Assembly (NCBI GenBank): GCA_963782915.1
Contig: CAWALK010000023.1
Coordinates: 64,001-128,000 of the forward strand
Reading direction: 5' to 3'
Length of the DNA: 64,000 nt
DNA from: an uncultured archaeon
GTDB lineage: Archaea > Thermoproteota > Bathyarchaeia > Bathyarchaeales > Bathycorpusculaceae
In this document: positions 3,363 to 52,636 of the stretch, one piece after another
Numbering within the stretch: position 1 is the stretch's first letter
Layout of the letters: each line of letters opens with the position of its first letter
The notes under the pieces: generated by a model
The model's input: the letters and a program-made list of their open reading frames with translations, nothing else
The model's database searches: none
What the model was told of the DNA's origin: nothing
Translations under genes and position numbers: made by a program

Positions 3363-4127
3363 CTAAAGGGTGAAAGCTGGCTCCCCAGCTACAGAGGCAA
3401 TGATTGCTTCTGCTTTTTCTTCCTGTTCTTTTGTACCCGAAACTGCTAACCAAACTGCGCCTTCTGCACCGTTTACGCCGCCAGCAGCGATCAATATAGC
3501 CTCGACGCCGCAGAGGAGTTTGAGGGCTTCGATTTCTGTGAATACTTCGCCTGGAAGCGGCAAAAAGCGGTATCCTTCGGCGCCTGGTTCATTTATTTTT
3601 TGGGCTATGGCGTTTAAGTCGCCGTTTATGCGTTTTTCTAAGCCTACAGCGACGAATAATTTTACTCTGCGTCCGAAGACTGCGGGTAGGGATAAGCCTG
3701 CTGTGCCTGCCTTTGGATGACCGATCAATAGAGCAGCCTGCTTACGCTCTAAACCTAGTGCGTTTGCACCTTTGACTATGACATCGCCTTCTTTTAGTGA
3801 ATCTACGATGTCGCCGATGGTTTTGCCCTTTTGCCATTCACCTTTAACGACGACTACATCGCCTGGGAATTGGGTTTCGTCTGAGAGTCGCCCTTCCTTG
3901 GTTACGGGTTTGTTGGGTGGCATTGTTAAGCCGCGGAAGAAGCGTTCGCGGGAAAAACCGCTGATGCCCATGCTGCGACAGATTTCTTCGGCTAAGTAAC
4001 CGTTTGTGGTTCCTGCTATGAGTACGAGTGTGCCGTTTTTGGCGGCGCTTTGGATTTGGGGGTGCCTGGCTAGGGCTTTTGCTATTAGGCGTTTGCCTGA
4101 TGAAGGTGTTAGGAGGAATTGTTTCAA
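3363..4127 (-). CDS. Conserved hypothetical protein (alpha/beta, IAGTTN and KGAN motifs)
   Basis: 254-aa ORF with protein-like composition; GGAG RBS upstream. Confidence 0.7.
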   Translation of the reverse strand: MKQFLLTPSSGKRLIAKALARHPQIQSAAKNGTLVLIAGTTNGYLAEEICRSMGISGFSRERFFRGLTMPPNKPVTKEGRLSDETQFPGDVVVVKGEWQKGKTIGDIVDSLKEGDVIVKGANALGLERKQAALLIGHPKAGTAGLSLPAVFGRRVKLFVAVGLEKRINGDLNAIAQKINEPGAEGYRFLPLPGEVFTEIEALKLLCGVEAILIAAGGVNGAEGAVWLAVSGTKEQEEKAEAIIASVAGEPAFTL

Positions 4128-4724
4128 GGGCTTGTCTCCTTGACTTTGTATTTCGGTTGTAGATTATAAGATTTGTGACTTTGTATTGTATTGAGCCGTC
4201 GATGGCCTATAGAGAATATGTTGGGCACCTCTAAGAGCAGCTTTGCTTTCTTAAATTGCAAGGAGCTGAAAAATAGTATGTGTAATTTAACAACAGGAGT
4301 TTATCGTCAAGAAATAAGCACCCCTAAACTTGCGGGGAAAGTTGCTATCTCAAAAGAACGTGTCTGTGCTTGTTTTCTTCTCCAAGAAAATACAATTTCA
4401 GCAGAGGTTTCTGTGAATGTATAAAACTATAGTTATAGATTGCCAAAATATTGCTGCTGATTTCTTTTGCGGTGGTTGTATCGCTTATCGGAACTGCGAA
4501 ATATCAAAACAGAACCTTCACAGCGGCTCTGTAGAGGCGCAAAAAACAATTAAATCATAGATTGAACGCGTATTGCTTAAAAAAGCGGACGCAAGCGACA
4601 ACTACTACAAACACAAAAAGAAACAACTATTCAGCATTACCAGCGAAATTTGGAGCTTGAAAAAATAATAAAAAATAAAAAAGATTTTATTCTTAACTAA
4701 TTGGAAAGATGATTAAGCTTACGC

Positions 4725-18583: not shown

Positions 18584-18705
18584 TGCTGCCAGCTTTCCCA
18601 GGTTCACGTGGCCTAAGACCACACTACAGCTGGGAACGGAACACGGTTTAACTTCTGAGTTCGGTATGGGATCAGGTGGAACCCGTGCCCTTTGACCGGC
18701 AAACC
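18584..18705 (-). rRNA. rrf: 5S rRNA (stand-alone)
   Basis: Minus strand contains CCACCTGATCCCATACCGAACTCAGAAGTTAA; ends pair (TTGCCGG / CTGGCAG); about 122 nt. Confidence 0.93.
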
Positions 18706-18972: not shown

Positions 18973-20099
18973 CAGTAGATCAAAAAATCGTGTTTCACCT
19001 CCTCTAAAAATCAACCGTAAGCCTCCAAATCAGGCAGCCAAGACAAGACTAAACACAACCTAACAGCATTCTTAAGAGCATACGTCCTAACACGCCTTCT
19101 ACGCCTGAAATTCCACAAAACCCACAAATTATAGAGTACAACCGCCAAAAAGAAATACAGCTGCCTCAACCTATAGAGCTTAGAGGTAGTCTTAGCCAAA
19201 AACAACCCAATCATACGATAAGAAGTCTCAATCCCCCAACGCCGCCTAAACGTCTTCTTAAGCACCTTGGGCTTAAACATGGTGTTGGTAGCAAAAATAA
19301 GCAGCTTCTTGTTTTGACGCACAGTTACAAGCCTAAAAGTCGCCTGATCCAAAACCGACTTCTTATGCGTAGTCGTTGTATAAAATACATCCAATCCGGC
19401 TCTTAAGGGCTCCTTATGCCAAGGAATATGCATTATGTACTTGATTTTGGCGTTATCTAGATAGTTTATCACTTGAGTGGAGAAGTAGCCTCGATCCAAC
19501 AGCACCAGCTTAACTGTTAAGCCCAACTCAGAGACACAGTCTAGGAGATACTTGACATGCCACAGCTTGCTTCTATGAATCATTGTTGCTGCTGCTAAGG
19601 TTAATCTCTGACCGTTGTAGAGAACACTTATCGTTGCATATCTGTAGGCATGGTTTGAGCCGTTCTTGTGTTGGGTTCCCACTACGCCTTTTGCTTTAGG
19701 GTCACCGTAGTACATTTCATCATGCCAGTCTATGGCTACAACCAGTGGCTTGTTTAGGGCGCCTTTTTGTTTCATTTGCTGGATTGTTTGCCGGTTGATT
19801 TGGAGTATTTGTTGAGGGTTTTGTTGTTTTAGGTGGTTTCTGACTGTTTGGCCGCAGAGTTGGAGGTTTTGTGCGCACCCTTCTATGTAGCTGTTGTCTA
19901 TTGCTGCTAGGATGAGTGTTTTGGTGGTTTCTTGGCTATTTCGGGCGTGTTTGAGATTAAGGAAGCTGCCGATTGTTTCTTTAAAATATAAGTAAGCCTT
20001 TAGCTTATCCCTTCGTCTAGGGATGGCGCTGTAGCTAGTCATGCTTGATACCCAAAAGCTGGTTACAGCGCTATTCCGATAAAAACTTTTGATCTACTG
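18973..20099 (-). mobile_element. Insertion sequence, ISH3-like (IS4-type DDE)
   Basis: 13-bp terminal inverted repeats CAGTAGATCAAAA; 4-bp target duplication ATAA at 18969-18972 and 20100-20103; single transposase. Confidence 0.9.
19011..20042 (-). CDS. DDE transposase (ISH3-like)
   Basis: VAIDWH, LLDRGYF, RRRWGIETSYR motifs. Confidence 0.92.
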   Translation of the reverse strand: MTSYSAIPRRRDKLKAYLYFKETIGSFLNLKHARNSQETTKTLILAAIDNSYIEGCAQNLQLCGQTVRNHLKQQNPQQILQINRQTIQQMKQKGALNKPLVVAIDWHDEMYYGDPKAKGVVGTQHKNGSNHAYRYATISVLYNGQRLTLAAATMIHRSKLWHVKYLLDCVSELGLTVKLVLLDRGYFSTQVINYLDNAKIKYIMHIPWHKEPLRAGLDVFYTTTTHKKSVLDQATFRLVTVRQNKKLLIFATNTMFKPKVLKKTFRRRWGIETSYRMIGLFLAKTTSKLYRLRQLYFFLAVVLYNLWVLWNFRRRRRVRTYALKNAVRLCLVLSWLPDLEAYG

Positions 20100-22684: not shown

Positions 22685-23608
22685 TTACTCTAGGAACTGT
22701 TCAAGGTACTGCATGATTAAATCGTAGGCTTGTTCATCATCGGGGCCAACCCTGAGGTGCGAGTCGTTGGTGCTGATTAATGCTTCACCATCGTTTTCCC
22801 CCACAGGCTCATTATATTTGATTCTAAAAACACACCGAGACACCCCGCTATTTTGGGTTTGGAAAGTCAGCAAAGGATACTTCACCCCCGGCAAATGCAC
22901 CTCATATTTCCCTTCTGCTTTGGCTTCAACAAGAAAATTCTTGGTTTCCCCCAACCCCAGAAGACTCTCAAGCAAAGCACCCTTATACTTGGGGAAACAG
23001 GCTTGCACTTCCAAATCAACCCTTTCTCTGACAGCGACTATTTTTTGGGCGATCGTATCTTTGTCCCAGAGTTCAAACCCTAACCTCTCAGCAGCAGCCT
23101 TTGCTTGTTCAGTGAAATACCCTGTTGCTATCAGGAGTGTTTTTTGGCATTCACCCTTCATCTCTTCTGCGAATAAAACGCTTGCTTCCGTGACTTTGTA
23201 GGTTTTGGGGCATTTTATGGCTTGAACTGCCACTTTTTCGCCATCCTTAGCGACTACGCCGTCAAATCCAAATTCGTTAGCTGCAAACTTTTCTGGCTGG
23301 CTTTCATATCCCAGTTCGCTAAGGAGCCACTGGGTGAAGTACTCGAATTCTTTGTCTGAGAGGCAATCAACTTGGTAACAGCCTGCATTCAGTGGTTCTG
23401 TTTCCGCTGATTTCTCAAACATCCGCAGAATCTTTTGCCCTTTCTTATCCGAGGCTTTCCCACTGATTTGTTTTTGGATTCGAGCAGCCAACACCTCAGC
23501 TTTATCCATTGGCAACTGCAAATTATCCGCAAGATACCCTGGCAAATCGATGTTTGGGTACTGCTCTTTTATCTCTTTTAGTATGCCCTTGGCGTTGGTT
23601 GGCTGCAT
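22685..23608 (-). CDS. Mrr-like (Mrr_cat) restriction endonuclease domain protein
   Basis: LSDKEFEYF...LGY...GFDGV....VAVQAIK...ATGYFTEQA...ELWD. Confidence 0.75.
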   Translation of the reverse strand: MQPTNAKGILKEIKEQYPNIDLPGYLADNLQLPMDKAEVLAARIQKQISGKASDKKGQKILRMFEKSAETEPLNAGCYQVDCLSDKEFEYFTQWLLSELGYESQPEKFAANEFGFDGVVAKDGEKVAVQAIKCPKTYKVTEASVLFAEEMKGECQKTLLIATGYFTEQAKAAAERLGFELWDKDTIAQKIVAVRERVDLEVQACFPKYKGALLESLLGLGETKNFLVEAKAEGKYEVHLPGVKYPLLTFQTQNSGVSRCVFRIKYNEPVGENDGEALISTNDSHLRVGPDDEQAYDLIMQYLEQFLE

Positions 23609-23610
23609 TT

Positions 23611-24981
23611 TTAGGGCTCCTTCGATTTAGCATGTTTAGGGCACAGTTTTCGTTGGAACTCATCGGTGTATGTAAGGTTTTGTTTCGAGAAGACTTTACC
23701 GCATATGTCGCAGAGTCCATAGTGGTAGATGCATACGCTAGAGTTGTCGTGGCTGCATTTGAATTCGAGGAGTTTGCTGTGTTTTTTGCCGCAGACACTG
23801 CAGACGAAGCCGCTGTCGCGTTCAATGTATTCGTTTAATTTTTCATCTAGCACTAATGGGGCTTTTTTGCTGTAGATTTTTCCTGTGTCTATTGATTGTC
23901 TGGTGCATTCTGGGCAGACGTAGAGTCCGTCTTGGGTTGCGTACCCTTCAGAGAAAGCTTTGTGGCAAACGGGGCAATTAACTTCTATGGAGTGGTTGAC
24001 GCCTAAGATGAAGCATCCGGGTATAGCGGCTTTGTTGTTGAGTTTTATTTCGAATTTAGCCTTAGCTGTGTTAATGACCAGTAGATTGATGAATTTCACG
24101 GCTATGTTGGTTAAGTATGATTCTTCTTCTCTTCTAAACAGCGCCTCATAGTTTGATTGCCATTTTGCATAGTCAAAGTCATGTTTTTTTGAGATAACGT
24201 GTTCTTTGCGTTCTCTTCTTAGCCGTTTTTCGAAGCTTCGCAGTTTTGCTTTTTTCTCTTTGTTTAGAGGTAAATCGTAGAGCGCCAATTTTTCTTTGAG
24301 TATGGCTGAGAGTTTTTCGTCTGCAACCGTTTTGAGTTTGTCCAGGATGTCTGGTTTTAGTTTTGTTTTATAATCCTGAAGCTCAATTGCCTCATTCTTC
24401 AGTAAACTATCTTCATTGAAGTCCTCGGCTGGCGCAAGGTTGCCTTTTTCATCAATTAAAACCGTGATTTTCTCTTCGCTTTTTGGTCTGAGCTTATTTT
24501 GGAAGGTTGCCAAGAAATAAAACAGGAAATACCTTACAGGCTCGGTTTTGCCCACGTCCACCGAATAGATTTTTCCATTGTTAACCTGATGGTAACATGG
24601 CTGCGTTTTTGTGCATAAATGAATCGTTTCTTCATCTGCTGTGAGTTGTTGGCAGCTCTGGCAATCAAACTCGCTATCTTTGCAATACTTTTTCACCAGC
24701 GCCTCAAAACTTTCCTTAGGTCTTACTAGAACTTGGCAGGGTGCCCCATTCTCCAAGCATTCCTTTAGTATCTGCTGAAAAGCTGGGCTCCCAGCCGTTA
24801 TTAGTTGGGCTTTGGTTTCACGCGCTATCGCTGGTTCATAAGTATACTCATGCGAATCGGCATCGTTTGGATAGGTTACGGTGAAGACGTCGCTGTTTTC
24901 TCCAGCTATTTCTCCCTGCTTGGATTTTACGTATGCCTTGATGAATTGCCGAATTTCTGCACCAACTTCTTCTGTGCTCAA
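23611..24981 (-). CDS. Multi-zinc-finger protein, YqhG-like partner of SNF2 helicase
   Basis: Many CxxC pairs (CPVC, CPEC, CSVC, CDIC, CPKH); overlaps the helicase stop. Confidence 0.6.
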   Translation of the reverse strand: MSTEEVGAEIRQFIKAYVKSKQGEIAGENSDVFTVTYPNDADSHEYTYEPAIARETKAQLITAGSPAFQQILKECLENGAPCQVLVRPKESFEALVKKYCKDSEFDCQSCQQLTADEETIHLCTKTQPCYHQVNNGKIYSVDVGKTEPVRYFLFYFLATFQNKLRPKSEEKITVLIDEKGNLAPAEDFNEDSLLKNEAIELQDYKTKLKPDILDKLKTVADEKLSAILKEKLALYDLPLNKEKKAKLRSFEKRLRRERKEHVISKKHDFDYAKWQSNYEALFRREEESYLTNIAVKFINLLVINTAKAKFEIKLNNKAAIPGCFILGVNHSIEVNCPVCHKAFSEGYATQDGLYVCPECTRQSIDTGKIYSKKAPLVLDEKLNEYIERDSGFVCSVCGKKHSKLLEFKCSHDNSSVCIYHYGLCDICGKVFSKQNLTYTDEFQRKLCPKHAKSKEP

Positions 24982-26975
24982 TCAAGGACCCCCTGAGTGA
25001 ACTGCTCAGCTAACTCTTCGTTCTGTTTAGACACGGTGAGGTCGGTTGCGAGTTTCTCCAGTTCCTTCTTTAAATCAATACGTGAATTGCTTCGGAGCAA
25101 GATTTCGGCAATGGTCTTCTGTATATCCTGATTGCCCTCTTTTAGTTCGGCTAGAACTGTTTCCATTTTGCCAATAGTCATGGTAAACAGGTCGATTTTC
25201 TGGTAGAGTATGTGCAGGACATAGTCGTCTATGGTGTCTTTAACCGCTAAGTTGAATACTGTGACATCGCGGTCCTGTTTAAATCGGTGAATTCTGCCAA
25301 TCCGCTGCTCAATCTTCATGGGGTTCCAATGCAAATCATAATTGAACATTAAGCAGCAATTCTGCAAGTTGAGACCTTCCGCGGCTGCATCGGTGGCAAC
25401 GAGATATTTGACTTCGCCATTCTTGAAGCTCTGAATAACTGCATCCCGTTCCATTTGGTTCATATCGCCAAGGAATACTGCTGCTGGACCGAATTGGGCA
25501 TCAAGCATTTCCTTTATTTTGTGTGCAGTAATTTTTCGAAGACAGAAAATCAGCGCCTGTTCCTTTGGAGTTTCCTTAAGGATATTGCTTAGGAGCTCCA
25601 TTTTTGCACTTTTAATTTTCCCCGCCATCTCAATGAGTTTGCTTGTAACCGCCGCTTCTGTGGGAAACCTTTGCCCTCTTTTAAGGAGCGATTGAATTGA
25701 AGCTGCCGGTGAACTCGAAAAAGACTGCTGTAATGTGATGGCTTGGAAAACCAAGATTGCGTTGCTCTGCGATTCACTGAATGTCCTGTTAGGATTCTCA
25801 GCGATGAGAGCTTCTATTGTTCGGAAACTGTTTTTGCTCATTTCACGCAGGTATTCGGTTGCTGTATCGATGAATTCCCTTTCAGCTTCATTGGGTTCGA
25901 GTGTTCTGGATTCTACAATACGTTTGGTAAATGGAATGCCTGTTTGTTCTCTTCGGGTCCGGCACATTACATCTTGGAGGTTTTGCCGTAGCAGATACGC
26001 TTCGCCCTCTCTCAAAACGCGGCTTCTGGCGTCTTCGGCATAACGGGATATGAATGCGCGTTCGCTATCAAGCATCCCCGGCTGAATTAAATCAACAATA
26101 CTGAATAAGTCGGTTAACTTGTTGCAAAGTGGCGTAGCAGTTAGCAGCAAGAGATGGTTTTTTCTTAACTCTGAAAGGCTGTTCCGTCCTTTGCTATGCG
26201 TATTCCTAAATGCATGCGCCTCATCCACAACCACCAAATCCCATGTCCGCTTAGAAATCTCTTCAAACTTGCGGGGCAAAAGAGTATGTGAACACAAAAT
26301 TCGGTTGCCCGTCTTAAAGTTCGCCCGTTCTCCCGGCTTGTTAGCTATAAGAAAGGTCTCGCCGAATTTTTCATTCATCTCGCTTTTCCATTGTGAAAGC
26401 AAGCTTTTGGGCGCAATAATCAGGATGGAGTTAATCTCCTCTCGCAGTAGCAGTTCCTTCATTATGAGACCTGCCTCGATAGTTTTGCCCAAACCTACCT
26501 CATCTGCGAGGATGGCGTTTGCATTCATTTCATTTATGACTTGCAACGCTGTTTTTAGCTGGAAATTGTAGGGAACCAATTTTGTACGGATTGCATCGAT
26601 GGCGATTAAGCGATCGATTTTAGCTGTCTGTTTCAGCTTTAAGGCTTCTAAGTTGAGTTGGAAAGCTTGGAATGTGTGGAATCTGTTTTTTTGTATTTGC
26701 TCTTTAATGTTATATGGATCAGAGAATGTGCAGGTGTATCTATGCTTGGTTTTCTCGCCTGAGGTGTTTTCCTCTTCGAATTCACAGGAAACGGTTTTCT
26801 CTTCAGGTTTAGCCTGAGCTTTTTTTGTTTTCTTAGGTTTAGGTGCCTGCACAGTGGCTGATTTAGTTTCTGGCTGTTGTACCGCCCAGTTTTCAAACTC
26901 ATTATCAGTCGAGATTGATGGGTTCTGGTATTCGCCGCCGTTCTCTTGGAGGTTTTCAGGCAAGAGTATCGCCAT
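24978..26975 (-). CDS. SNF2-family helicase/ATPase (YqhH/RapA-like)
   Basis: LADEVGLGKT, VVDEAH, LLLTATP, AAEGLNLQ, WNPMKIEQRIGRIHR. Confidence 0.92.
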   Translation of the reverse strand: MAILLPENLQENGGEYQNPSISTDNEFENWAVQQPETKSATVQAPKPKKTKKAQAKPEEKTVSCEFEEENTSGEKTKHRYTCTFSDPYNIKEQIQKNRFHTFQAFQLNLEALKLKQTAKIDRLIAIDAIRTKLVPYNFQLKTALQVINEMNANAILADEVGLGKTIEAGLIMKELLLREEINSILIIAPKSLLSQWKSEMNEKFGETFLIANKPGERANFKTGNRILCSHTLLPRKFEEISKRTWDLVVVDEAHAFRNTHSKGRNSLSELRKNHLLLLTATPLCNKLTDLFSIVDLIQPGMLDSERAFISRYAEDARSRVLREGEAYLLRQNLQDVMCRTRREQTGIPFTKRIVESRTLEPNEAEREFIDTATEYLREMSKNSFRTIEALIAENPNRTFSESQSNAILVFQAITLQQSFSSSPAASIQSLLKRGQRFPTEAAVTSKLIEMAGKIKSAKMELLSNILKETPKEQALIFCLRKITAHKIKEMLDAQFGPAAVFLGDMNQMERDAVIQSFKNGEVKYLVATDAAAEGLNLQNCCLMFNYDLHWNPMKIEQRIGRIHRFKQDRDVTVFNLAVKDTIDDYVLHILYQKIDLFTMTIGKMETVLAELKEGNQDIQKTIAEILLRSNSRIDLKKELEKLATDLTVSKQNEELAEQFTQGVLD

Positions 26976-27237
26976 CTACTAACCGACTAAATATAAAAAC
27001 CTGAAGTGCATCCAGGCGATTGTTCTGTAGCCTTCTTCAAGAGTAGCAGCGCCAATTCCAGATACAATGGGCAGTATTTTTCCCCAAATATTTCATTTGA
27101 ACCCCGTGTTTTGTTTGTCTCCATGCGGTTCATTAATAATTTGGGCCTCTAGATGTAACATAGTAAGTAGGCGATTGGTTCTATGGGACCGTCACCCTTT
27201 AATTCCAAAACCATTTCTAGCATACCGCTCCGGTGAT

Positions 27238-28618
27238 ATGTTGTTTAAGAAAACAAAAATAGTCTGCACAGTAGGACCTGCAAGCTTCCCAAAAGAAACA
27301 ATCACAAAAATGTATCGATCAGGCATGAATGGTGTAAGAATTAACACTGCATATGGGAACATAGCGCAGTATCAGTCAACCATAGAGACCGTTCGTGAAA
27401 TAGCGGAGATCCCCATAATAATCGACCTTAAAGGACCCGAAGTTAGACTAAGAACATCAGAGTCCAAAACTATTCACACTAACGACGTTTTCGAAGTAGG
27501 CTTCAACGGAGAAGAAATCTGCTTCAACCATGACTTCTACGACAAAGTAGCAATAGACGACGTTATCCTCATCGATAACGGTAAGATCAAAACAAAAATC
27601 GTACAAAAAGGCAACCGCAAGCTATGCTTACGTGCCCTAACTGCCGGAGAAATAGAAGACGGCAAAGGCGTTAACATTCCAAATAAACACCTTTCCCTTT
27701 CAACCCTGTCTAAGAAGGACTTAGAGGTTGTACAGTTTGCAAAGAAGCACAACGTCGAATATGCTGCGCTTTCTTTTACGAGAAATGCCAAAGACATAGA
27801 AGCGCTCTCAAAAACCCACAAATTCGAAGGCGGCATAATCGCTAAAATCGAGAATAACGAAGGCGTACAAAACGCCGCAGAAATTCCTAGAAGCCGCCAC
27901 AGGTATAATGGTTGCAAGAGGCGACTTGGGAGTTGAAATTGAACCCGAAAAGGTACCCCTCATACAGAAATCGCTGATAAAACAGTGTAACCAAAGGGGC
28001 AAATTAGTGATAACCGCCACTGAAATGCTCGAATCCATGATTCACCAGCCTAGCCCAACCCGAGCTGAAGTCAGCGACGTAGCAAACGCTATCCTCGATG
28101 GCTCAGATGCAATTATGCTTTCCGGCGAAACAGCAATCGGGCAATACCCAATAGAAGCCGTTGATATGATGGCTCGCATTGCGCATGAAACCGAGGCAGC
28201 AGTCATAAGTAAAGTTGAAGGCACCCACTTCATCAATATTTCAGACACTGTCAGTAAAGCGATACAGGAAATTTGCCTAAGCATGCCCCTTAGTAAAGTG
28301 ATTACTTTGACTAAAACTGGCTACACTGCCCGCATGATTGCGCGATTCAAGATTTCGCAGCCAATTATCGCTGTTACCCCTGAGATAAAAGTGAAGAAAC
28401 AGTTAGAGTTAGTGTTTGGTGTAAAACCCGTTTTTATTGATTACTTGGGCGAAAAGGATACGATTTCTGCGGTTGCTAAGCAACTCTATGATATGCATTT
28501 AATTGAGGATAAAGAAACGGTGCTCTTCACTGCAGGTGAGCGCACGATAATGAAGCATGCTAGCAACGCGATTGAAATCCATAAGATTGAGGAATTGCGG
28601 AATTTCTTTTCCTCTTAA
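27238..28618 (+). CDS. pyk: Pyruvate kinase; single frameshift near 27886
   Basis: KTKIVCTVGPAS, DLKGPEVR, AKIEN, MVARGDLGVE, PTRAEVSDVANAILDG. Confidence 0.93.
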
Positions 28619-28904: not shown

Positions 28905-28979
28905 CGGGTCCGACGGGAGTTGAACCCGCGACCCTCGGATTAAAAGTCCGATGCTCTAGCCTGACTGAGCTACGGACCC
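28905..28979 (-). tRNA. tRNA-Lys(TTT)
   Basis: GGGTCCGTAGCTCAG...CGGAC-TTT-TAATCCG...GGTTCAACTCC...CGGACCCG cloverleaf; no intron. Confidence 0.95.
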
Positions 28980-29859: not shown

Positions 29860-31884
29860 TTGATCTCATGGAAATACACGTTTAAGCGATTAAATGAAGA
29901 ATACGAAATCGCCACAAAAAAGAAGCAGGCGTTAGATAACCTCTGCGCCACTGGCAAAATTTCGCAAGCAACCCGCGACTCATTCACAACTGATATAGTA
30001 ACAGCTATTGCCGATCTTGAAAAGCAGCGCCAAGACCTCGGAGAAAAAATGCAAGTAAAAACCACCGAGCTAGAAGGACAACTAAAAACCTTGGAAATGC
30101 TTCTCGCAAACTACGAAATCCAGCATGTAGTAGGCGAAATCGACGATGAAATCTACGGAAGAGAACTAGGTCTCCTCTCAAATATCCTCGACAACACAAA
30201 AAATGAATTAGGCACAATAAAGGACGCGACCAGCCAACTTTTTCCTGCCCCAAAAGCAGTCGAAGCTCCAGTAATCGCTGAGTCAGTTGCTCCAGTTGCA
30301 CAAGCGCCAATTATCTCAACTCCTGTAGAAGTCCCGGTTGAAACTGCCACAATCCAACCCGCAATCGTGGAAACAGTGACAGCCGCAGAAACTACATCCG
30401 TTGAAACAGCGCCAATTGAAGCCGCTCCGGTTATTGAAGCGCCAGTCGAAATAGTTCAAGCTGAAGCAGCGCCAGCGGAAATTGCCGCCCCAGTAGTCGA
30501 GGCAGCCCCCATTGTTGAGGCTCCCGTAGAGACTCCTGTTGAGGCAGCACCCGTTGAAGCTGTACCAGTTGAAGTTGCAGTTGTTGAAGCCCCCATCGTT
30601 GAGGCTCCAGTTGAAGCTGCACCAGTAGAAACAGTTGCAGTTGAAACTCCAGTTGTCGAGGTAGCAGCAGTTGAGGCAGCCGTTGAAGTTGCTCCAATTG
30701 AAGCAGCTCCAATCGAAGTTGCACCAGTTGTTGAAGAAGCAGTCGTTGAGGCTCCAGTAGTAGAAGCCGCTTCAGTTGAAGAAGTAGCAGTTATTGAAGC
30801 TCCAGTAGCAGAAGCAGCAGTAGTTGAGCAAGTTATCGAAGCTCCAGTCGTCGAAGTAGCAATTGAAGCTGCACCAGTAGAAACAGTTGCAGTCGAAGCC
30901 CCAGTTGTTGAGGCTGCTGCAGTTGAGCAAGCAGTTCCAGCAGTTGAAGCAGCTGCAATTGAAGAAACACCAGTCGTTGAAGCAGCGCCAGTTGAAGTAG
31001 CAGTTGTTGAAGCCCCAATCGTTGAGGCTCCAGTCGAAGCTGCACCAGTAATTGAAGAAGCAGCAGTTGAAGTTCCAGTTGTTGAGGCAGCCCCAGTTGA
31101 GGTTCCAGTTGAAGAAGCTCCAGCAATCATTGAAGCTCCAATCATCGAAGCCCCAGTTGAAGCAGCCCCAATGGAAGTAGTAGCTGAAGCAGTCGTTGAA
31201 GCTCCAGCAGTTGAAGCATCTATAGTTGAAATTGCAGCAGTTGAAGAAACTCCAGTTATCGAAGCCGCTGCAGTTGAGGAAGTTGCAGTTGCTGAGGCTC
31301 CGGTTGAAATCGTCAGCGAAGCAGTCGTTGAAGAAGCAGTTGCAGCTGAAGCAGTAATTGAAGAATCAGTCGTTGAAATTGCAGCTCCAGTAATTGAAGA
31401 AGCCGCTCAAATCGAGCAGTCAATAGTTGAAGAAGCAACCGTTGAAGTTCCAGCTATTGAGGCACAAGTTGAGGCTCCCGTTGAAGAAGCCCCAGCAGTC
31501 CTCGAAGCCCCAATACTCGAAGCTCCCGTTGAAACCGCAACCGTCGAAGAAGCTGCAATCGTTGAAGCTCCAGTTGTTGAAGCTCAAACAGAAGAAGCAG
31601 CAACCGAAGCAGCCGCAGAACCAGAACAAGTTATTGAAGCAGCTCCACTTCAAACATTCGAAGTAACCGAGCATGCAGCAACCGAAATCACACTCGAAAA
31701 AGTCATGGAACAAGCAATAGAAGAACAAATCGTTCAGCCAGTCATCGTGGAGGAGGCCCACGTTCCGGCCCACCCTTCAGAAGCGCCCACAGCGGCGCAT
31801 TCAGAAGTGGAAGCGGAAACAGCCGACCAAACCACCGACCAAACCCCCCAAGCAGAAGAAGACGAAGAAGACACAACTGAGTAA
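29860..31884 (+). CDS. CdvA-like coiled-coil protein with very long Glu/Ala/Val/Pro repeat tail
   Basis: N-terminal coiled coil with EIQHVVGEIDDE.Y; about 540 aa of VEAAP/VEAP repeats. Confidence 0.6.
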   Translation: MISWKYTFKRLNEEYEIATKKKQALDNLCATGKISQATRDSFTTDIVTAIADLEKQRQDLGEKMQVKTTELEGQLKTLEMLLANYEIQHVVGEIDDEIYGRELGLLSNILDNTKNELGTIKDATSQLFPAPKAVEAPVIAESVAPVAQAPIISTPVEVPVETATIQPAIVETVTAAETTSVETAPIEAAPVIEAPVEIVQAEAAPAEIAAPVVEAAPIVEAPVETPVEAAPVEAVPVEVAVVEAPIVEAPVEAAPVETVAVETPVVEVAAVEAAVEVAPIEAAPIEVAPVVEEAVVEAPVVEAASVEEVAVIEAPVAEAAVVEQVIEAPVVEVAIEAAPVETVAVEAPVVEAAAVEQAVPAVEAAAIEETPVVEAAPVEVAVVEAPIVEAPVEAAPVIEEAAVEVPVVEAAPVEVPVEEAPAIIEAPIIEAPVEAAPMEVVAEAVVEAPAVEASIVEIAAVEETPVIEAAAVEEVAVAEAPVEIVSEAVVEEAVAAEAVIEESVVEIAAPVIEEAAQIEQSIVEEATVEVPAIEAQVEAPVEEAPAVLEAPILEAPVETATVEEAAIVEAPVVEAQTEEAATEAAAEPEQVIEAAPLQTFEVTEHAATEITLEKVMEQAIEEQIVQPVIVEEAHVPAHPSEAPTAAHSEVEAETADQTTDQTPQAEEDEEDTTE

Positions 31885-34115: not shown

Positions 34116-36585
34116 TTAGTATTCTGGTTTTATGTATACTTGAGTTTGGGCGACTTGTCTGCCCTCAGCTTTTTCAGCTATTACTTTTATGTTTTCGATT
34201 TTTAGGGTTGCTGCGATGTCGATGGTTGCTTGGCGTATTGCGACGGCGGTGGCGTCGTCTGCGGTGTAGATGGTTAAGTTTTTGATGGGTGCGTTGAGTG
34301 AGAGTTTCTTTTCTGCTTTGTCGCGGCGGATTTCGCTCATTATGGCGGTGATTAAGTCGCCGTCTTTCTCAGCTGCCTCATCAACCAGTGAGGCGTTGAA
34401 CTTTGGCCATTGCGAAACCTGTATGCTCTTGTAGCCTTTGCCATCCATGTACATGTACTGATAGATTTCTTCTGCCATGTGTGGGGTGACTGGGGCGAGG
34501 AGTTGTAGCATGCGGTAGAGTACCTCATAGAGGGTGTGTTGTGCTGCGGCGGTGTTTGCTTTGCCGTAGACTTCGGGGCGGTATAATCTGTCTTTGATGG
34601 CTTCGACGTAGAAGTCGCAGAAGACGTGCCAGGTGAAGTTGCGGATTTCCTCTACTGCGATGTTGAATTGGCATTTTTCGTAGGCTTCGGTGACTTTTTT
34701 GGTGATGTTCTCGGTTTTGCTAAGGATCCATTTGTCGAGTAGTTGGAGGTCCATTTCGTCGCTGGCTTTTGGCGTATAGTTGCCCAGCAAGTTGCTTGCG
34801 AATCCGGAGGCATTCCAGAGTTTAACCAGGAAGCGTCTGCCGTATTCGACGTCTTGGGCGCGGTAGGGTATGTCTGAACCGGTTGCTCCTCCGCCTGCTG
34901 CCCATTGGCGGACTGCGTCGGCTCCGTACTTGTTGAGTGTTTCCGGTGCGGCAGCATAGTTTTTGAGTGATTTGCTCATTTTTCTGCCATCGGCGCCTAA
35001 GACCATGCCGTTGATGAGTACGCTGTTGAAGGGGCGCTCGTCGAAGAGTGCTAGGTGGCGTACCATGAGGTAGTATGCCCATGTGCGGATGATGTCGGTT
35101 CCGGATGGGTGTATGCTTGCCGGGATACAGGCGCTTCCAGTCCGCTCGGTCTGGCCAGCCAGCGTGGACGGCGCAGGTGATTGAGCTATCCATCCAAGTA
35201 TCCATAACATCCTGTTCGCCGCGGAAGTCTATGCCGCCACATTTGGGGCACTTCTCGATTCGTGGGCCCTCAAGCTTGGGGTCAATCGGAACCCAGCCTT
35301 CCTCCGCGATTATCATTTCGCCGCAACCCTTACAGAACCACACCGGGATCGGAGTGGCGAATAAGCGTTGGCGGCTGATTACCCAGTCCCAATTCAAGCG
35401 AATGCGCCCAGTCGATCAGGCGGTTACGCATGTAATCTGGGTACCAAGGTATTGCCTTAGCGTTCTCCTCAACTTTGTCAGTTAACTCCATGTTTTTCAT
35501 GAACCACTGTTTTACTTCGAGAATTTCGACGCCGGTCTTGCAGCGGTCGCAGACGCCGACTTCCTGCTGGATTTTTTCGCTCTTCTCAAGCAACCCAGCT
35601 TCGGTGAGGTCTTTGACTATGGCGGCTCGGGCTTGGTTAATGTAGAGGCCAGCGTATTTGCAGCCTGCCTCGCTAATTTGGCCGGTCTGGGTTATGAGGC
35701 GGATGACGGGGAGTTTGTGTTTTATGACCGTTTTTACGTCTTCCTTGTCGCCGTAGGTACAGATTTGCATGGCGCCAGTGCCGAATTTGGGGTCGACGGC
35801 TTCGTCAGTTATGATTGTGACTTCGCGGTTCATGAGTGGCACATTGATTTTTCTGCCAATGTATTTGGCGTAGCGTTCGTCTTTGGGGTTTACTTCGACG
35901 GCGACGCAGGCGGGGATGAATTCGGGGCGGGAAGTCGCAATCAGCAGGTACTCTTGCTGCCTGCGAGGTGGTATTTGATGTAGTGGAGCGTGCCCTCTTT
36001 TTTGACGTGGTCAACTTCTGCGTCGGCGATGGCTGTTTCGTCGCGTGGACACCAATTAACTGGATGTGTGCCCTGATACATGAAGCCCTTCTGGTAAAGT
36101 TGGATGAAGCTGAGTTGGGTGCGACGCCAATAGTCGGGGTCCATGGTTTTGTACTCTGTAGTCCAATCGATGGAGGCGCCCATTTTGAGGATGCCTTCCT
36201 TCATCATGGCAATGTATTTCTCGACCAGTTCGATGCACCAGGCGCGGAACTGGTCTGGGGGAACATCGCGTTTGCGGATGTTTTTGGCTTTTTCAACTTG
36301 GATCTCTATGCCTAAGCCGTGGCAGTCCCAGCCCTGCGGGAAGAGCACGTTGTAGCCTTGCATGCGTTTGTAGCGGGCTACCATGTCGAAGTACGTCCAG
36401 TTTAGGACGTTGCCCATGTGGAGTTCGCCTGAAGGGTAAGGCGGAGGCGTATCGATGCTATAGGGGACGCGTGATTTGTCGTTCCAGTCGTAGTGGTATA
36501 GGGCCATTTCTTCCCATTTGGCTTGCCATTTAGCTTCGATTTCAGTGAAATTGTAATCTTTAGGCATAGGCTGCATGAACATCAA
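34116..36585 (-). CDS. valS: Valyl-tRNA synthetase, split by about 4 frameshifts
   Basis: IDTPPPYPSGELHMGN, DWVISRQR, MDTWMDSS and KMSKS spread over consecutive ORFs. Confidence 0.92.
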
Positions 36586-44407: not shown

Positions 44408-44658
44408 TTTGTTTCACTTCTTGTTATTGTTTCCTTTTTAGGGCGGAAAAGTATATAACTATTGTGTAGTAAGACTAAAGATACACGTTACACGTATGAA
44501 AAAACCCTGAAAAAAGCCCTGAACAACATAGCACCTGAAAAAAACACGACAGCAATAACTTAAATTCAACCCAAAAAACCCCAAATTCAGTAACCAAACA
44601 ACACACCAATCAGCAGCGGCACAAAACTAATATTGCTCAAAAAAGCATATTCCACTCA

Positions 44659-44752
44659 GTTCTTGGGGAGCTGGAAAATGATCCGGCTGAGAGGATGCCT
44701 ATGTGGCATCGACCCTGCGAACCTGAACCAGGTAATACTGGCGGAGGGAAAA
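44659..44752 (+). ncRNA. TPP (THI-box) riboswitch
   Basis: GGGGAGC...GGCTGAGAG...GACCC...ACCTGAACCAGGTAATACTGGCGGAGGGAA consensus directly upstream of thiT. Confidence 0.9.
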
Positions 44753-44758
44753 CAAGTA

Positions 44759-45340
44759 GTGAATACCACAAAAGAGAATGCCCTGAATAGTGAATTTAAA
44801 AACCCAAATTCCTTTAGAAACCCAAAAGTTTTAGCTGAAATGGCCATCTTCACCGCTTTAGCCACTGTCTTAAGCACAATTATAATATACATTATGCCAC
44901 AAGGCGGCTCAATCACACTTGCCTCAATGGTGCCTATTATTTGGCTGGCGCTAAGAAGAGGTCCAAAAGTCGGTATTGCCACTGGAATACTCTATGGCTT
45001 CATCCAATTTTTAATGATGCCCTACATTGCACCAGTGACAAACCCAATAGTAGCATTAATCCAAGTGCTACTCGACTACCCAATTGCGTTTGGAGTGTTG
45101 GGGTTAGCCGGCTACTTTTCCAAATACCCAGTTGTCGGAGCCGCAGTCGGAGTATCACTGCGTTTTGTGATGAGCTTCCTTTCGGGCGCATTCATCTGGG
45201 CGGGAATCTACGCTATAGGATTAGACCCCTACGTCTACTCAGCTGTGTACAATGGAAGTTATATGCTGCCTGAACTCATCATAACAGTATTCGTTATATT
45301 CCTGCTTCAGGCAAGTAAAACCTTGAAGGCATATCTCTAA
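44759..45340 (+). CDS. thiT: ECF-type thiamine transporter S component ThiT
   Basis: LAEMAIF.ALA, MPQGGSITL.SMVP, Q.LLDYP.AF, YS.VYNGSY; GTG start after the riboswitch. Confidence 0.88.
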   Translation: MNTTKENALNSEFKNPNSFRNPKVLAEMAIFTALATVLSTIIIYIMPQGGSITLASMVPIIWLALRRGPKVGIATGILYGFIQFLMMPYIAPVTNPIVALIQVLLDYPIAFGVLGLAGYFSKYPVVGAAVGVSLRFVMSFLSGAFIWAGIYAIGLDPYVYSAVYNGSYMLPELIITVFVIFLLQASKTLKAYL

Positions 45341-46341
45341 TGGGAAAACTCGCCGCAAAAGACCTCCAAGAAATGCTCAACTGCATACCGCCCGATCCGC
45401 GGGTGGTGGTGCCGCCAATGATTGGCTACGATGCCGGCGTGCATCGCTTAGGCGACCAATACGTGGTGGTGGCAGCTGACCCCTGCACAGGCGTTCCCGA
45501 AGAATGGTTCGGCTGGTTACTCATCAACTATGCCGCCTCAGACGTGGCATTATCGGGCGCTAAACCCCAATATTGCACGGTTACGCTGCTTGGGCCACGG
45601 CCAACCGAGTCTGCTGTTTTTCAGAAGTTAATGAAGCAAACTTGCATGGCCGCCGACGAATTAGGCATCGCCATAGTCCGGGGACACACCGGCATGTACG
45701 ATAGCGTAAAAGAGGTACTCGGCGTCTGCACAGTATATGGAACAGTGAAGCCGGAAAAGCTGATTACTTCCGGCGGTGCAAAACCCGGCGACAACATTTT
45801 CTGCACAAAACCCCTGGGCGCTGAAACGATTACCAACTATTCATTAACGCATCCTGCGGTGGCGCGCAAGCTTTTTGGCATGGAAAAACAGCGGGAGTTT
45901 GCCGGCCAAGTGAAGCTGCAAAGTTGCGTTAAAGAGGCGCTTTTATTGGCTGAGGTTGAGGGTGTGCATGCGATGCATGATGCAACAGAAGGCGGCTTCG
46001 TATCAGCCCTAAATGAATTGGCTGGTGCATCGAATGTCGGCATAACTGTGAATTGGGAAAAAATTCCTATTCCGCCTGAAAGTCAGGTATTACAGAGGCA
46101 TTTTGGGTTAAGCGACCCTCAGGTGCTGGCGATGTCTTCCACCGGCACCATCTTAGGAGCCGTTATACCCGAATCAAAAGACAAAATCGCTTCAGCCCTC
46201 CAAAAACTTGGATTAACCGCATCTTTTATCGGCGAATTCACAGAAAACAAAGAAAGAATACTTGTTAAGGGCGGCATCAAAACAGCGTTTCCCGCCGTCG
46301 CTGATGACCCCTACACAGCCATGATGGCTTTTACTTCCTAA
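45340..46341 (+). CDS. AIR synthase-related (PurM/ThiL/HypE superfamily) protein
   Basis: GYDAG, DP, DVA.SGA.P, GHT, MHDATEGG; TAATG overlap with thiT. Confidence 0.82.
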   Translation: MGKLAAKDLQEMLNCIPPDPRVVVPPMIGYDAGVHRLGDQYVVVAADPCTGVPEEWFGWLLINYAASDVALSGAKPQYCTVTLLGPRPTESAVFQKLMKQTCMAADELGIAIVRGHTGMYDSVKEVLGVCTVYGTVKPEKLITSGGAKPGDNIFCTKPLGAETITNYSLTHPAVARKLFGMEKQREFAGQVKLQSCVKEALLLAEVEGVHAMHDATEGGFVSALNELAGASNVGITVNWEKIPIPPESQVLQRHFGLSDPQVLAMSSTGTILGAVIPESKDKIASALQKLGLTASFIGEFTENKERILVKGGIKTAFPAVADDPYTAMMAFTS

Positions 46342-47209
46342 GCTCTTTTAATACGAACTGTACGATTTCGTCAGCAATGCTAACTTTCGCAACTTGCTGC
46401 AATCCCTTCCAGCCGGGTTGACTATTAACGTCCACAATGCGTGGGCCCTCTGGTCCTTCAAGAATGTCTACGCCGGCAACTTTGCATCCTACAGCTTTCG
46501 CTGCTTTTATGGCTAAGTCTTTGAATTCGTCGCTGATTTCTGTTGCTGCGGGTTTGGCTCCTTGGCTATAGTTTGTTTTCCATCCTGTTGCAACGCGGCG
46601 CATGGATGCGATGACTTGGTCGCCTAGGACGAATGCGCGTATGTCGCTAAAACCGTGTTCGACGAATTCTTGCATGTAGATGACGCCGTGGTGGAATGTG
46701 ATGGCTTTGAAGATGGTGTCGGCTATGTCTACGTCGTTGACGCGGGTTGCGCCTTGTCCGCGTGATCCGAATATTGGTTTGACGACTATGTCGCCGCCGA
46801 GTTCATCAAACGCCTTTATGGCTTCGTTAACGCTCTCGGTAGCTAAGGTTCGTGGAACCGGAACGCCCACATCTTCGAGTAACGCGAGGATGTCATATTT
46901 GTCGACGCAGTGCTCAATCGCAGTGGGCGGGTTAACCATGTAGAAGCCTTTGCGCTCCAACTTGTAGAGCATGTCCATGCGGAAAACAAGCTCTTCGAGT
47001 GATCCGCGGCCGATGGGTCGGATGATGAGTGCGTCTAAATCGTCCATGATGCTTATGCCGTTAACTTTGAAGTAGGGTCTGTAAGCTAATCGGGCGACTA
47101 GTTTTGGAAAAGTGAAGCATTCATAGGGTATGCCTCGTTTGGTGAGTGCTTCTCGAACTTGAGAGCTGCTCCATGCTTCTGGGTTGCGTGTCATGATGCC
47201 GAATTTCAT
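46331..47209 (-). CDS. RimK-family ATP-grasp ligase (MptN/CofF-like)
   Basis: VPVPRT, VVKPIFGSRG, QEFV, DIRAFV, WKTNYSQG, AGVDIL, VNSQPGW. Confidence 0.88.
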   Translation of the reverse strand: MKFGIMTRNPEAWSSSQVREALTKRGIPYECFTFPKLVARLAYRPYFKVNGISIMDDLDALIIRPIGRGSLEELVFRMDMLYKLERKGFYMVNPPTAIEHCVDKYDILALLEDVGVPVPRTLATESVNEAIKAFDELGGDIVVKPIFGSRGQGATRVNDVDIADTIFKAITFHHGVIYMQEFVEHGFSDIRAFVLGDQVIASMRRVATGWKTNYSQGAKPAATEISDEFKDLAIKAAKAVGCKVAGVDILEGPEGPRIVDVNSQPGWKGLQQVAKVSIADEIVQFVLKELRK

Positions 47210-47319
47210 GTGGGTCGGTCCTTGGGTGCTGTTTAGAACATGCGTAGGGTTTGTGCTCTTAAAGCTTCTGGGCAAAATGGAGTCTATGCGCTAAATAGAC
47301 CCGCATACAGCAAGACGCA

Positions 47320-50655: not shown

Positions 50656-52636
50656 CTACTTGATTCGTTCTAACCTCAGAGTGTTGAGCAGTAGGAGCAT
50701 GGTTAAGCCGTCGTCGCCTGCCGCAACCGTAAACCACAGCGGCGTCAACCCCAAAAAGCCAAGTGTGCCTAAAACGAATTTTATGATTAGTGAGCCTGCG
50801 ATGTTTTGTTTGGCGATTACCATGGATTTTTGGCTCAGCTTGATTAGGTAGGGGATTTGTGCGAGTTCATCTTTTACCAACACTACATCCGCCGACTCCA
50901 AGGCGACGTCGACGCCTCGTGCACCCATTGCGATGCCTACATCTGAAGCTGCCAGTGCCGGAGCATCATTCACGCCGTCGCCGACCATTGCGACTAAGCC
51001 GTCTTTGCCCTTCATATCCTCGATGCACGCTAACTTGTCTTCGGGGAAAAGCTCAGAGTGCACATCATCAATCCCCAACGTGTAAGCGATTTCGTTGGCA
51101 ATCTCAGCCTTATCACCCGTTAACATTGCAGTTTTAACATTCTGCTTCTTTAACGCGTGAATGGACAGTAGGGCATCTTCTCGAACCTGATCAACAACGC
51201 AAACTGCAGCCAAACCCGTCTTGCCAACGGCAATACAAACAGCGGTGTGGGCGTCACCTGCCGCAATTTCAAAAGCCTCCGTGCAGTCGCAGCCAAATTC
51301 GCGCATCAACTCCACGTTACCAATAGCTACATGTTTACCGTTCACCATGCCGACTATGCCTTTGCCCGGAACCTCAATAACACCCGTCACCTCTACTTTG
51401 CTGAGATCAATGCCTCGCTCCATTGCTTTTCGCACGATGGCTTGTGCAATAGGATGGTTAGAAAACTGGTCGAGAGCCGCAGCATAAGTTAGGGCTTCAT
51501 TTTCGTCTTTAGTTGTATCCGGTCGCCTAATTTCGTGTACTGCTTGGCGCCCAAGAGTTAGAGTTCCGGTTTTGTCAAAAACAACGGTTTTTACTTTTGC
51601 AAGTTTTTCTATGAATACTCCGCCCTTGATGATTACACCTCTTTTAGCAGCCACAGTAATCGCTACAAAAATCGTTGCCGGAACAGAAATGATGAACGCG
51701 CTGGGACAGGACACCACCAGCAGCATCAGTGAACGGTAGAACCATGTTTCAAATCCTCCGCCAGCGATGTAGGGCATCGCAAGAGCAGTGAAAACCGCCA
51801 ATACGATGACTATGGGCACATAGATTTTTGCGAACCTATCCACCAAACGTTCAATGCCTGCTTTTCGTTTCTGTGATTCAATAACAAGCTGCACGATGCG
51901 GGATACGAGGGTTTCAGTGGATTTCTTAGTAACCTCGATTTTTAGGACGCCGCCGGTGTTTAGGGTTCCGGCGAAGACACAGTCGTTGACCCGTTTGGGT
52001 ACAGGCACCGATTCACCCGTCACCAAGGCTTGGTCAACATGCGAGAAACCGTCGGTAACATTGCCGTCCAAGTGGGATGCGTTCGCCGGGTTTAACAAGG
52101 ATGATTGTGCCTGTTTGCACTTCGGTTACGTTGATGCTTTCTTCTTTACCAGCGGCTAAGACGCGTGCTTTCTCCGGGATAACTTTGGAGATTGCCTCTA
52201 CGGTGCGTTTGGCTCTTTCTTGGATGTAGCCTTCAAAGTATTCTGCGATGCAGTAGAGGAACAGTACCGTGGCGGCTTCAAAACGGTAATCCAGTGCTAA
52301 GGCGCCTAAGCCTGCGACTGCCATGAGGAATTCTACGCTGAATCTGCGCTCGACAACGAGTTCTTTTAAGCCCACTACGCCGATGTAGATAGCTGCAGTC
52401 AGCACCGCAACGTAGTAGAGTATCAAGGATACGGTGGCTGGGAGGTTGATGATTGGGATTGTGAAGCCCAATGGGATGCCCTTGAAGAATATGTCCATTA
52501 TGCCTGCTACTAGGATTGTTAGGCCTAACCAAACGGCGAAGCCAACGAGTACCTTTTTGTTTTCTTCTTCTTCACCGATTACGGTTGTTTGCGGTTTTGG
52601 TTCTGGTTTTTCTTCGCAGGTTCCCATAACAATCAA
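50656..52636 (-). CDS. Heavy-metal P1B-type ATPase with SCP motif; frameshift near 52075
   Basis: TGES, VSCPSA, DKTGTLT, HP, TGD, GDGVNDAP. Confidence 0.9.

Follow-up and report, generated by a model that had tools for sequence, protein, structure and literature searches.

How could a thiamine pyrophosphate (TPP) riboswitch control a gene whose start codon follows the aptamer almost at once, and what might be the role of the enzyme gene that is coupled to it? Both questions are raised by a locus in a 64,000-nucleotide stretch of DNA from an uncultured archaeon of the Bathyarchaeia (GenBank assembly GCA_963782915.1, contig CAWALK010000023.1, positions 64,001 to 128,000 of the forward strand), which we call the window and in which coordinates count from the first letter. 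Here an aptamer of the Rfam family RF00059 precedes thiT, a gene for the substrate-capture (S) component of a thiamine transporter belonging to the energy-coupling factor (ECF) type, and thiT overlaps a gene for a protein of the PurM superfamily. We consider it reasonably probable that the two genes form a Bathyarchaeia operon that is repressed by TPP through direct occlusion of a Shine-Dalgarno (SD) sequence, with the second gene product acting on the imported vitamer. The features on which this reading depends are the following:

44621..44635, plus strand: archaeal promoter-like element, purine-rich AAAAC resembling a B recognition element and then TATA-like TAATATT (regular expression over 80 loci)
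44654..44660, plus strand: predicted zone of transcription start (~26 nt downstream of the TATA centre, by the general spacing rule)
44654..44765, plus strand: TPP riboswitch aptamer, RF00059 (covariance-model match; helix counts on 80 homologous aptamers)
44659-63/44750-53, plus strand: helix P1, weak, with nominal 3' strand A44750-C44753
44664-67/44713-16, plus strand: helix P2
44670-74/44685-89, plus strand: helix P2b
44696-701/44704-09, plus strand: helix P3
44722-24/44745-47, plus strand: helix P4
44728-31/44738-41, plus strand: helix P5
44743..44747, plus strand: SD-like GGAGG, part of P4 (3' strand) and of the internal loop between P4 and P5 (covariance-model alignment)
44759..45340, plus strand: thiT, ECF-type thiamine transporter S component, 193 residues, GTG start (PF09515, TIGR02357, 3rlb)
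45340..46341, plus strand: PurM-superfamily protein (AIRS and AIRS_C domains) of no characterised subfamily, 333 residues, coupled to thiT by TAATG

By family membership, the element is a genuine TPP riboswitch. When the entire window was scanned with 4227 Rfam families, RF00059 matched 44654-44765 (+) with 60.1 bits, above the gathering score of 54.3 and with an E value of 2.7e-9 for that search space, and the alignment spans the full model (positions 1-105 of 105). Three families reached their gathering scores in the window: tRNA, 5S ribosomal RNA (rRNA), and RF00059. Homologous loci were collected from genome contigs with a profile of the PurM-like protein, which gave 138 stretches and 119 relatives, of which the best 80 were kept (54-88% identity; numbers such as L007 denote single loci). 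Helices were counted on an alignment of 80 aptamers in the Rfam structure, with 500 shuffles and slid registers as controls. The whole structure is 90.6% paired, against 32-55% in every slid control, and its covariation was reached by 0 of 500 shuffles, a figure to be read with the relatedness among the aptamers in mind. Compensatory change is strongest in P3 (99.6% of cells paired, double changes in 6 of 6 pairs) and weaker in P2b (100% paired, changes in 1 of 5 pairs) and P2 (81.9% paired, changes in 1 of 4 pairs). Both P4 and P5 are 100% paired; P4 is invariant and therefore uninformative on covariation, and P5 is almost invariant and mostly uninformative. The motifs GCTGAGA, AACCTGA, and GGCG.AGGGA occur without variation throughout the alignment (80 of 80 aptamers). 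Their junction motifs CUGAGA, ACCUGA, and GCG.AGGGA are what we take to be the ligand contacts, and we infer that the window aptamer binds TPP.

The 3' part of the aptamer carries a sequence that may serve as its output. GGAGGG occupies 44743-44748, and in the covariance-model alignment G44744-A-G-G44747 forms the 3' strand of P4, with C44722-C-U(-G)44725 as its partner and one G/G mismatch, that of G44744 opposite G44725. Of the SD-like run, G44743 and G44744 lie at the P4/P5 internal loop. At 44744 the Rfam consensus has u, so the G that completes GGAGG replaces a consensus base and sacrifices one P4 pair, yet it is retained in 77 of the 80 aptamers, which read GGCGGAGGGA; the remaining three read GGCGAAGGGA. 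GTG at 44759-44761, the thiT start codon, lies in the frame of the ThiT open reading frame (ORF); it follows GGAGGG by 10 nt and GGAGG by 11 nt. Among the 80 aptamers, 73 are followed 4-12 nt past GGAGG by a start codon that opens an ORF of at least 100 codons (ATG in 31, GTG in 33, and TTG in 9), and in 67 of these 73 the distance is 7-11 nt. In L013 and L056 the start codon is in place and the ORF is broken, L067, L071, L076, and L080 carry ACG or ATA 10-12 nt after AGGGA where their relatives carry ATG, GTG, or TTG, which could reflect a near-cognate start, a sequencing error, or a decaying gene, and L009_2991 has no obvious start codon after the aptamer. Such tight spacing in 73 of 80 cases is hard to explain without a role at the level of translation, and we regard GGAGG as a putative SD sequence.

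The space between the aptamer and thiT is too short for a terminator, an anti-SD hairpin, or a separate expression platform, and the window has no stretch of five T from the aptamer to thiT codon 20. Because there is neither room for an expression platform nor an oligo-T tract, direct occlusion of the ribosome-binding site appears to be the most likely mechanism. What defines direct-occlusion riboswitches, a ribosome-binding site within the aptamer and no separate platform, is matched here by the putative site GGAGG 44743-47 in P4. In a ligand-free ensemble model P4 has a mean probability of 0.25-0.29, and in this model P4 alone is unstable without ligand. The preliminary description of this DNA had seen a full THI-box consensus whose GGAGGG lies about 10 nt before the GTG of thiT, inside an aptamer stem, and had seen thiT coupled by TAATG to a PurM-superfamily gene of an archaeon of the TACK type (Thaumarchaeota, Aigarchaeota, Crenarchaeota, and Korarchaeota). 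The Rfam search and the covariance-model alignment bear out the riboswitch and the position of its GGAGGG; the stop codon TAA (45338-45340) indeed overlaps the ATG (45340-45342) of the PurM-like gene in TAATG 45338-45342, and the closest homologues are bathyarchaeal and the window contains a CdvA-like gene, in agreement with a TACK-type host.

The leader is probably little more than the aptamer. A purine-rich run and a T/A box (AAAACTAA(A)TAT), centred 31-42 nt before the aptamer GGGG, were found by regular expression in 66 of 80 loci, and variants of this box are visible by eye in the remaining 14. Their order follows the established layout of archaeal promoters, in which transcription starts ~26 nt downstream of the TATA centre. 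The transcript 5' end would then lie ~5-15 nt before GGGG, and the leader would be essentially the aptamer alone. A pyrimidine-rich motif (ATTATCCCC, TTACCCTCC) was also observed between the TATA-like box and the aptamer, at 44640-44655 in the window and in many relatives; it sits 10-18 nt before the aptamer GGGG, is complementary to GGAGGG in some loci, and is probably located at or before the transcription start.

The product of the first gene is recognised as ThiT by PF09515 (130.7 bits, cut-off 25.8), by TIGR02357 (109.8 bits, barely over the cut-off of 108.45), and by its match to the solved ThiT structure 3rlb_A (E 6.9e-9 across residues 16-188). The D, W, Y, and N residues aligned to sites in 3rlb are invariant in the ThiT homologue alignment, and we take these positions to be thiamine contacts. 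The Pfam match begins near a later ATG at 44840, which was considered as the thiT start and is disfavoured: 19 homologues conserve the region between GTG 44759 and ATG 44840 (SFRNPKVLAE; …SEFKNPNSFRNPKVLAE…) as protein and keep its S, F, N, and P invariant, and in several of them the annotated start, V or M, aligns with GTG 44759. Two homologues are annotated from further upstream, where the extra residues are translated aptamer. A ThiT family profile found 3058 representative clusters at E <= 1e-3, of which 104 also pass E <= 1e-30, with scores that begin at 295 bits, pass through a few intermediates at 230-175 bits (several of them fragments), and continue at ~165 bits and lower. Organisms were looked up for 20 clusters (P0241 of the top group and the 19 next-best), eight of which carry an organism name; one of the eight is archaeal (Nitrososphaeria), one is named only as 'bacterium', and six have a bacterial taxon (Armatimonadota, Caldisericia, Clostridia, Coprothermobacterota, Eubacteriales, and Syntrophomonadaceae). 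No compositional sign of recent transfer was seen in the GC content over thiT (0.42-0.45, with 0.42-0.47 in its neighbours). These data are compatible with an old acquisition of ThiT from bacteria by an ancestor of the Bathyarchaeia.

The arrangement of aptamer, thiT, and PurM-like gene recurs across the Bathyarchaeia. The closest PurM-like and ThiT homologues come from Candidatus Bathyarchaeota, Bathyarchaeia, Bathycorpusculum, or Nitrososphaerota, and nearly all of the 80 loci are titled Bathyarchaeota or Bathyarchaeia, with L044, L069, and L072 titled as bacterial metagenome-assembled genomes. The ThiT profile places thiT immediately upstream of the PurM-like gene, in the same orientation, in 79 of 80 loci; it is missing only from L079, where the contig begins inside the PurM-like gene. 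Absence of this linkage in relatives, which would have spoken against the preliminary description, was looked for and not seen. The ThiT matches are split or truncated in L001, L013, L015, L045, L056, and L058. The thiT stop and the PurM-like start are -17 to 38 nt apart in 71 of 78 cases (the window counted), 136 nt in L071, and 743-745 nt in L064, L067, L070, L073, L074, and L077. In these six deepest-branching loci an inserted gene for a single-domain KaiC/RecA-like ATPase (PF06745, 112 bits) separates the two genes and has the same strand as thiT (~4273-4995 in L064, L067, L070, L073, and L074; 1793-2506 in L077). RF00059 scored above gathering in all 13 long loci and in 19 of 20 short ones, where L063 is truncated by the end of its contig; scores in the relatives are 56.3-72.9 bits. 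A profile of the aptamers run with nhmmer gave 84 matches in 78 of the 80 loci and the window, and with L058 and L079 cut at the contig end, 78 loci can be judged, of which 77 have an aptamer immediately in front of thiT.

A second TPP aptamer was observed ~1.3 kb upstream of the thiT aptamer in several loci (L007 1350-2711, L009 2991-4302, L020 2931-4253, and L036 2957-4263). It exceeds the Rfam gathering score in L007 and L020, and weaker nhmmer matches occur in L054 (2992-3093) and L057 (3284-3380). This aptamer precedes genes for a membrane protein resembling an ECF S component (PF07155, 33-43 bits) and a class I S-adenosylmethionine-dependent methyltransferase (PF08241); the methyltransferase gene would then be under TPP control.

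The PurM-like protein has both domains of its superfamily (PF00586, AIRS, 50.8 bits; PF02769, AIRS_C, 73.7 bits), and its AlphaFold model (mean predicted local distance difference test score 89) has the PurM-superfamily fold. Foldseek places this model about equally near HypE (template modelling score 0.75), SelD (0.74), ThiL (0.69-0.71), and PurM (0.70), each with a probability of 1.00, and the family profile scores 67.7 bits against HypE, 57.3 against SelD, and only 31.4 against the best ThiL among solved structures. The two-domain AIRS and AIRS_C fold is common to ThiL, HypE, SelD, and the PurM-like protein; the latter differs from all three in that it falls below every family cut-off, ends in AFTS, and has an N-terminal MGKL of its own that is invariant in the family. 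A family search gave 2443 proteins at E <= 1e-3, the best 120 of which are all 67-88% identical. The protein is a distinct subfamily. A search of the ESM Atlas returned only generic clusters of HypE or aminoimidazole ribonucleotide (AIR) synthase from Nitrososphaerota, Bacillota, and Chloroflexota. No fused form that could act as a Rosetta stone was found at E <= 1e-20 among proteins of 584-2000 residues, which is weak evidence. SelD was rejected as an identity (TIGR00476, 91.9 bits, cut-off 125): SelD has an N-terminal Cys/Sec motif, and the MGKL start leaves no residue for it upstream of the Lys.

These features suggest how the module could work. The promoter would fire ~5-15 nt before the aptamer, which would make up nearly the whole 5' leader; GGAGG would lie in the 3' strand of P4, and the 3' strand of a weak, A/U-rich P1 would act as the spacer to the start codon. 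When TPP is scarce, the P4/P1 region could breathe and allow the small ribosomal subunit to load. Binding of TPP would lock P4-P5 against P2-P3 and bury GGAGG, the spacer, and the neighbourhood of the start codon, so that initiation at thiT is blocked, and this block would pass through the TAATG overlap to the coupled PurM-like gene. ThiT is the subunit that captures the substrate for an ECF thiamine importer. The vitamer so imported is the most likely substrate of the PurM-like protein, a presumed ATP-using enzyme, which might for example trap and activate it by phosphorylation of thiamine or thiamine monophosphate (TMP). From the conserved operon and the shared riboswitch we hypothesise a thiamine-related role for this protein, be it as a kinase that traps the vitamer, as a stand-in for TMP kinase, or in repair. 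A bolder version is possible, although we doubt it somewhat: the protein could represent a new family of ATP-dependent thiamine-salvage enzymes, largely confined to Bathyarchaeia, with one of two reactions: it would phosphorylate thiamine or TMP after import, or it would re-close ring-opened (damaged) thiamine by activation of a formamide oxygen as in PurM and HypE, and with the platform-less, SD-occluding TPP riboswitch it would form a self-contained module for uptake, trapping, and sensing.

Several results weigh against the proposal of SD occlusion in a thiamine operon. Upstream of gene starts, the window shows no enrichment of SD-like 5-mers (4 of 66, with a background of 4.3%), as judged from 66 crude starts taken from the longest ORFs; textbook SD sequences do occur at some genes (GGAGG before 55948, AGGTG before 5936, and GAGGT before 60272). 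The 64-kb window contains no 16S rRNA gene and hence no sequence of its tail. AGGGA is common to every TPP aptamer, so that part of the resemblance to an SD sequence comes free, and the ensemble model without ligand leaves the SD bases unpaired with a probability of only ~0.4. P1 in the Rfam register is paired in 57.8% of cells with a weak compensatory signal, and the 5' and 3' flanks of one sequence have no pairing advantage over flanks swapped between loci (-2.79 kcal/mol for own and -3.02 for swapped; own better in 36 of 80). On these two results we do not claim a conserved P1, which in the alignment is short, A/U-rich, and without demonstrable conservation. No genes for the ECF energising proteins EcfA, EcfA', or EcfT were found among 66 window ORFs scanned against Pfam. 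In L007, the only such locus among those assessable, the thiT-PurM-like pair occurs without a TPP aptamer: no residual aptamer precedes its thiT even at E <= 10, its single aptamer lies 2.9 kb upstream before another gene, and its ThiT (4032-4401) is divergent, with 139 bits against the family profile. All 80 loci belong to one class, and a convergent RimK/MptN-like gene downstream is kept in 71 of them; because this gene is likewise conserved, the linkage of thiT and the PurM-like gene may be partly inherited synteny. Finally, the PurM-like protein scores 87.7 bits against the thiamine-phosphate kinase ThiL (TIGR01379, equivalog cut-off 184.15) and 82.7 against HypE (TIGR02124, cut-off 251.6), and its C-terminus (...MMAFTS) has no terminal Cys, where HypE carries a C-terminal cysteine motif. 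The analogy with ThiL drawn in the preliminary description is therefore not specifically supported, as SelD and HypE are at least as close by sequence and fold.

Control of GGAGG could instead work by strand exchange rather than by pure occlusion. In the absence of ligand the 5' end UCAGUUC (44656-44662) would pair with the invariant GAACCUGA (44719-44726), remove the partner of the SD sequence, and free GGAGG, and TPP would displace this helix and restore P4. The minimum-free-energy fold of the window RNA contains this pairing, the helix reaches 69.3% paired cells in its fixed register, where a shift by one column gives 47.5-56.3%, in 76 of 80 cases the 5' flank forms a better duplex with the GAACCUGA region than its own shuffles do on average, and the leader variants AGUUC, AGGUC, and AGG..UUC are, by eye, all complementary to GAACCU. 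However, the 3' side is invariant, which makes covariation impossible, the ensemble probability of the helix averages 0.27-0.33 and exceeds 0.5 in only 14-21 of 79-80 sequences, the same bases form the nominal 5' strand of P1, and the model hinges on the exact 5' end of the transcript, which is here only predicted. We therefore regard strand exchange as unlikely. An aptamer that acts on transcript stability, or on transcription elongation or termination, instead of on translation initiation would agree with the sparse use of SD sequences in the window; the accessible part of PMC8241225 names the fluoride riboswitch of Thermococcus as the only natural archaeal riboswitch tested. Such a mode of action appears very unlikely in view of the start codon held 4-12 nt past GGAGG in 73 of 80 aptamers and the lack of an oligo-T tract after the aptamer.

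A further alternative leaves the riboswitch and thiT as described and concerns the second gene, which could have no thiamine function and be merely co-transcribed, kept in place by inherited synteny within Bathyarchaeia. The origin of all loci from one class, the conserved convergent neighbour, scores below every thiamine-family cut-off, the KaiC-like ATPase gene between the two genes in six loci, and the gene pair without riboswitch in L007 are all in its favour. It has to contend with same-strand adjacency in 79 of 80 loci at 54-88% identity and with a gap of at most 38 nt or an overlap in 71 of 78. The upstream flank is not conserved, with a PhoU-like neighbour in 4 of 80 loci and a pilin-like one in 0 of 80, and the two genes stay co-directional and nearly abutting, in an operon that persists even where a gene has been inserted. 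Mere co-transcription is a tenable explanation, if not one that we would expect to hold, and a two-gene operon under SD occlusion, with the PurM-like protein acting on the imported vitamer, is the reading that we carry forward.

The nearest bacterial counterpart is the TPP riboswitch of thiT in Lactococcus lactis (RSthiT), which in the available text of PMC8862789 has the same RF00059 aptamer, the same ThiT family (PF09515), and the same logic by which TPP represses uptake. The window element differs from RSthiT in its archaeal host, in the lack of a platform after the aptamer, in the GGAGG inside P4 with the start 11 nt further on, and in the co-transcribed gene for a protein of PurM fold. 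In the accessible part of the review PMC10907184, the direct-occlusion riboswitches SAM-II and preQ1-I/II, which are pseudoknot classes, form Group 1, and the TPP class is filed under, and exemplifies, 'strand exchange'. What these direct-occlusion switches share with the window element is a ribosome-binding site, putative in the window, in or abutting the aptamer without a separate platform (PMC10907184, as far as the text is available). They are small bacterial H-type pseudoknots, whereas the window has an archaeal TPP aptamer with a three-way junction, for which occlusion is predicted. Direct occlusion, if true, would shift the TPP class from strand exchange, where the same available text of PMC10907184 files it, to the direct-occlusion switches. 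A TPP riboswitch whose output consists of an SD sequence and a start codon abutting the aptamer would be a minimal case for riboswitch action on archaeal translation.

The transporter genes regulated by TPP in Thermoplasma are presumably not thiT genes. Their riboswitches (Rodionov et al. 2002, cited in PMC5473149, of which part of the text is available) likewise occupy the archaeal leader of a gene for a thiamine-related transporter. The same portion of PMC5473149 describes TPP and fluoride riboswitches as common in archaea, with 79 in Euryarchaeota, 6 in Crenarchaeota, 1 in Korarchaeota, and 1 in Thaumarchaeota. In contrast to those of Thermoplasma and other Euryarchaeota, the riboswitch described here belongs to the Bathyarchaeia, a TACK lineage. 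Literature searches for Bathyarchaeota or Bathyarchaeia together with TPP riboswitch, thiamine, or ThiT found nothing relevant among the papers listed, and neither did searches that linked AIR synthase with a thiamine transporter or riboswitch. Automated annotation in public records may already label the aptamers. Conservation of the module across Bathyarchaeia, which are abundant in sediment, soil, and gut, argues for their dependence on external thiamine.

Operons in which pnuT is followed by tpk under a TPP riboswitch are an established arrangement. To our knowledge, archaea have no assigned kinase for the step from thiamine to TPP. The PurM-fold family may fill a step in archaeal thiamine salvage to which no enzyme is assigned, and a PurM-like kinase, if true, would supply the step from thiamine to TPP. 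The pnuT-tpk operons, which pair a thiamine facilitator with a trapping kinase (available text of PMC5749112), provide a model for such a trapping role, as in both cases a transporter gene and then a gene for an ATP-using enzyme stand under one TPP riboswitch. Both window proteins belong to families other than those of PnuT and Tpk, and the kinase role of the PurM-like protein is hypothetical.

The other features of the window are listed here in order:

18584-18703, minus strand: 5S rRNA
19011-20042, minus strand: DDE transposase
22685-26975, minus strand: SNF2-family helicase, unassigned 456-residue ORF, and protein with an Mrr-type restriction endonuclease domain, in a row
27067-28618, plus strand, 34116-36585, minus strand, and 50656-52636, minus strand: split-gene regions (Pfam)
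28905-28979, minus strand: tRNA
29860-31884, plus strand: CdvA-like protein
46331-47275, minus strand: RimK-family ATP-grasp ligase, convergent to the operon

The RimK-like ligase is closest to the tetrahydromethanopterin:alpha-L-glutamate ligase MptN, with 265.5 bits, under the cut-off of 350. In the split-gene regions, Pfam matches to pyruvate kinase, a class I aminoacyl-tRNA synthetase, and a P-type ATPase continue across two to three consecutive ORFs; these split ORFs are frameshifts, pseudogenes, or assembly errors, and the thiT genes of several relatives are split in like manner. The 5S rRNA gene stands alone and adjoins the DDE transposase gene, and the CdvA-like protein has a long extensin-like repeat region. 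The row of genes at 22685-26975 may be a defence island.

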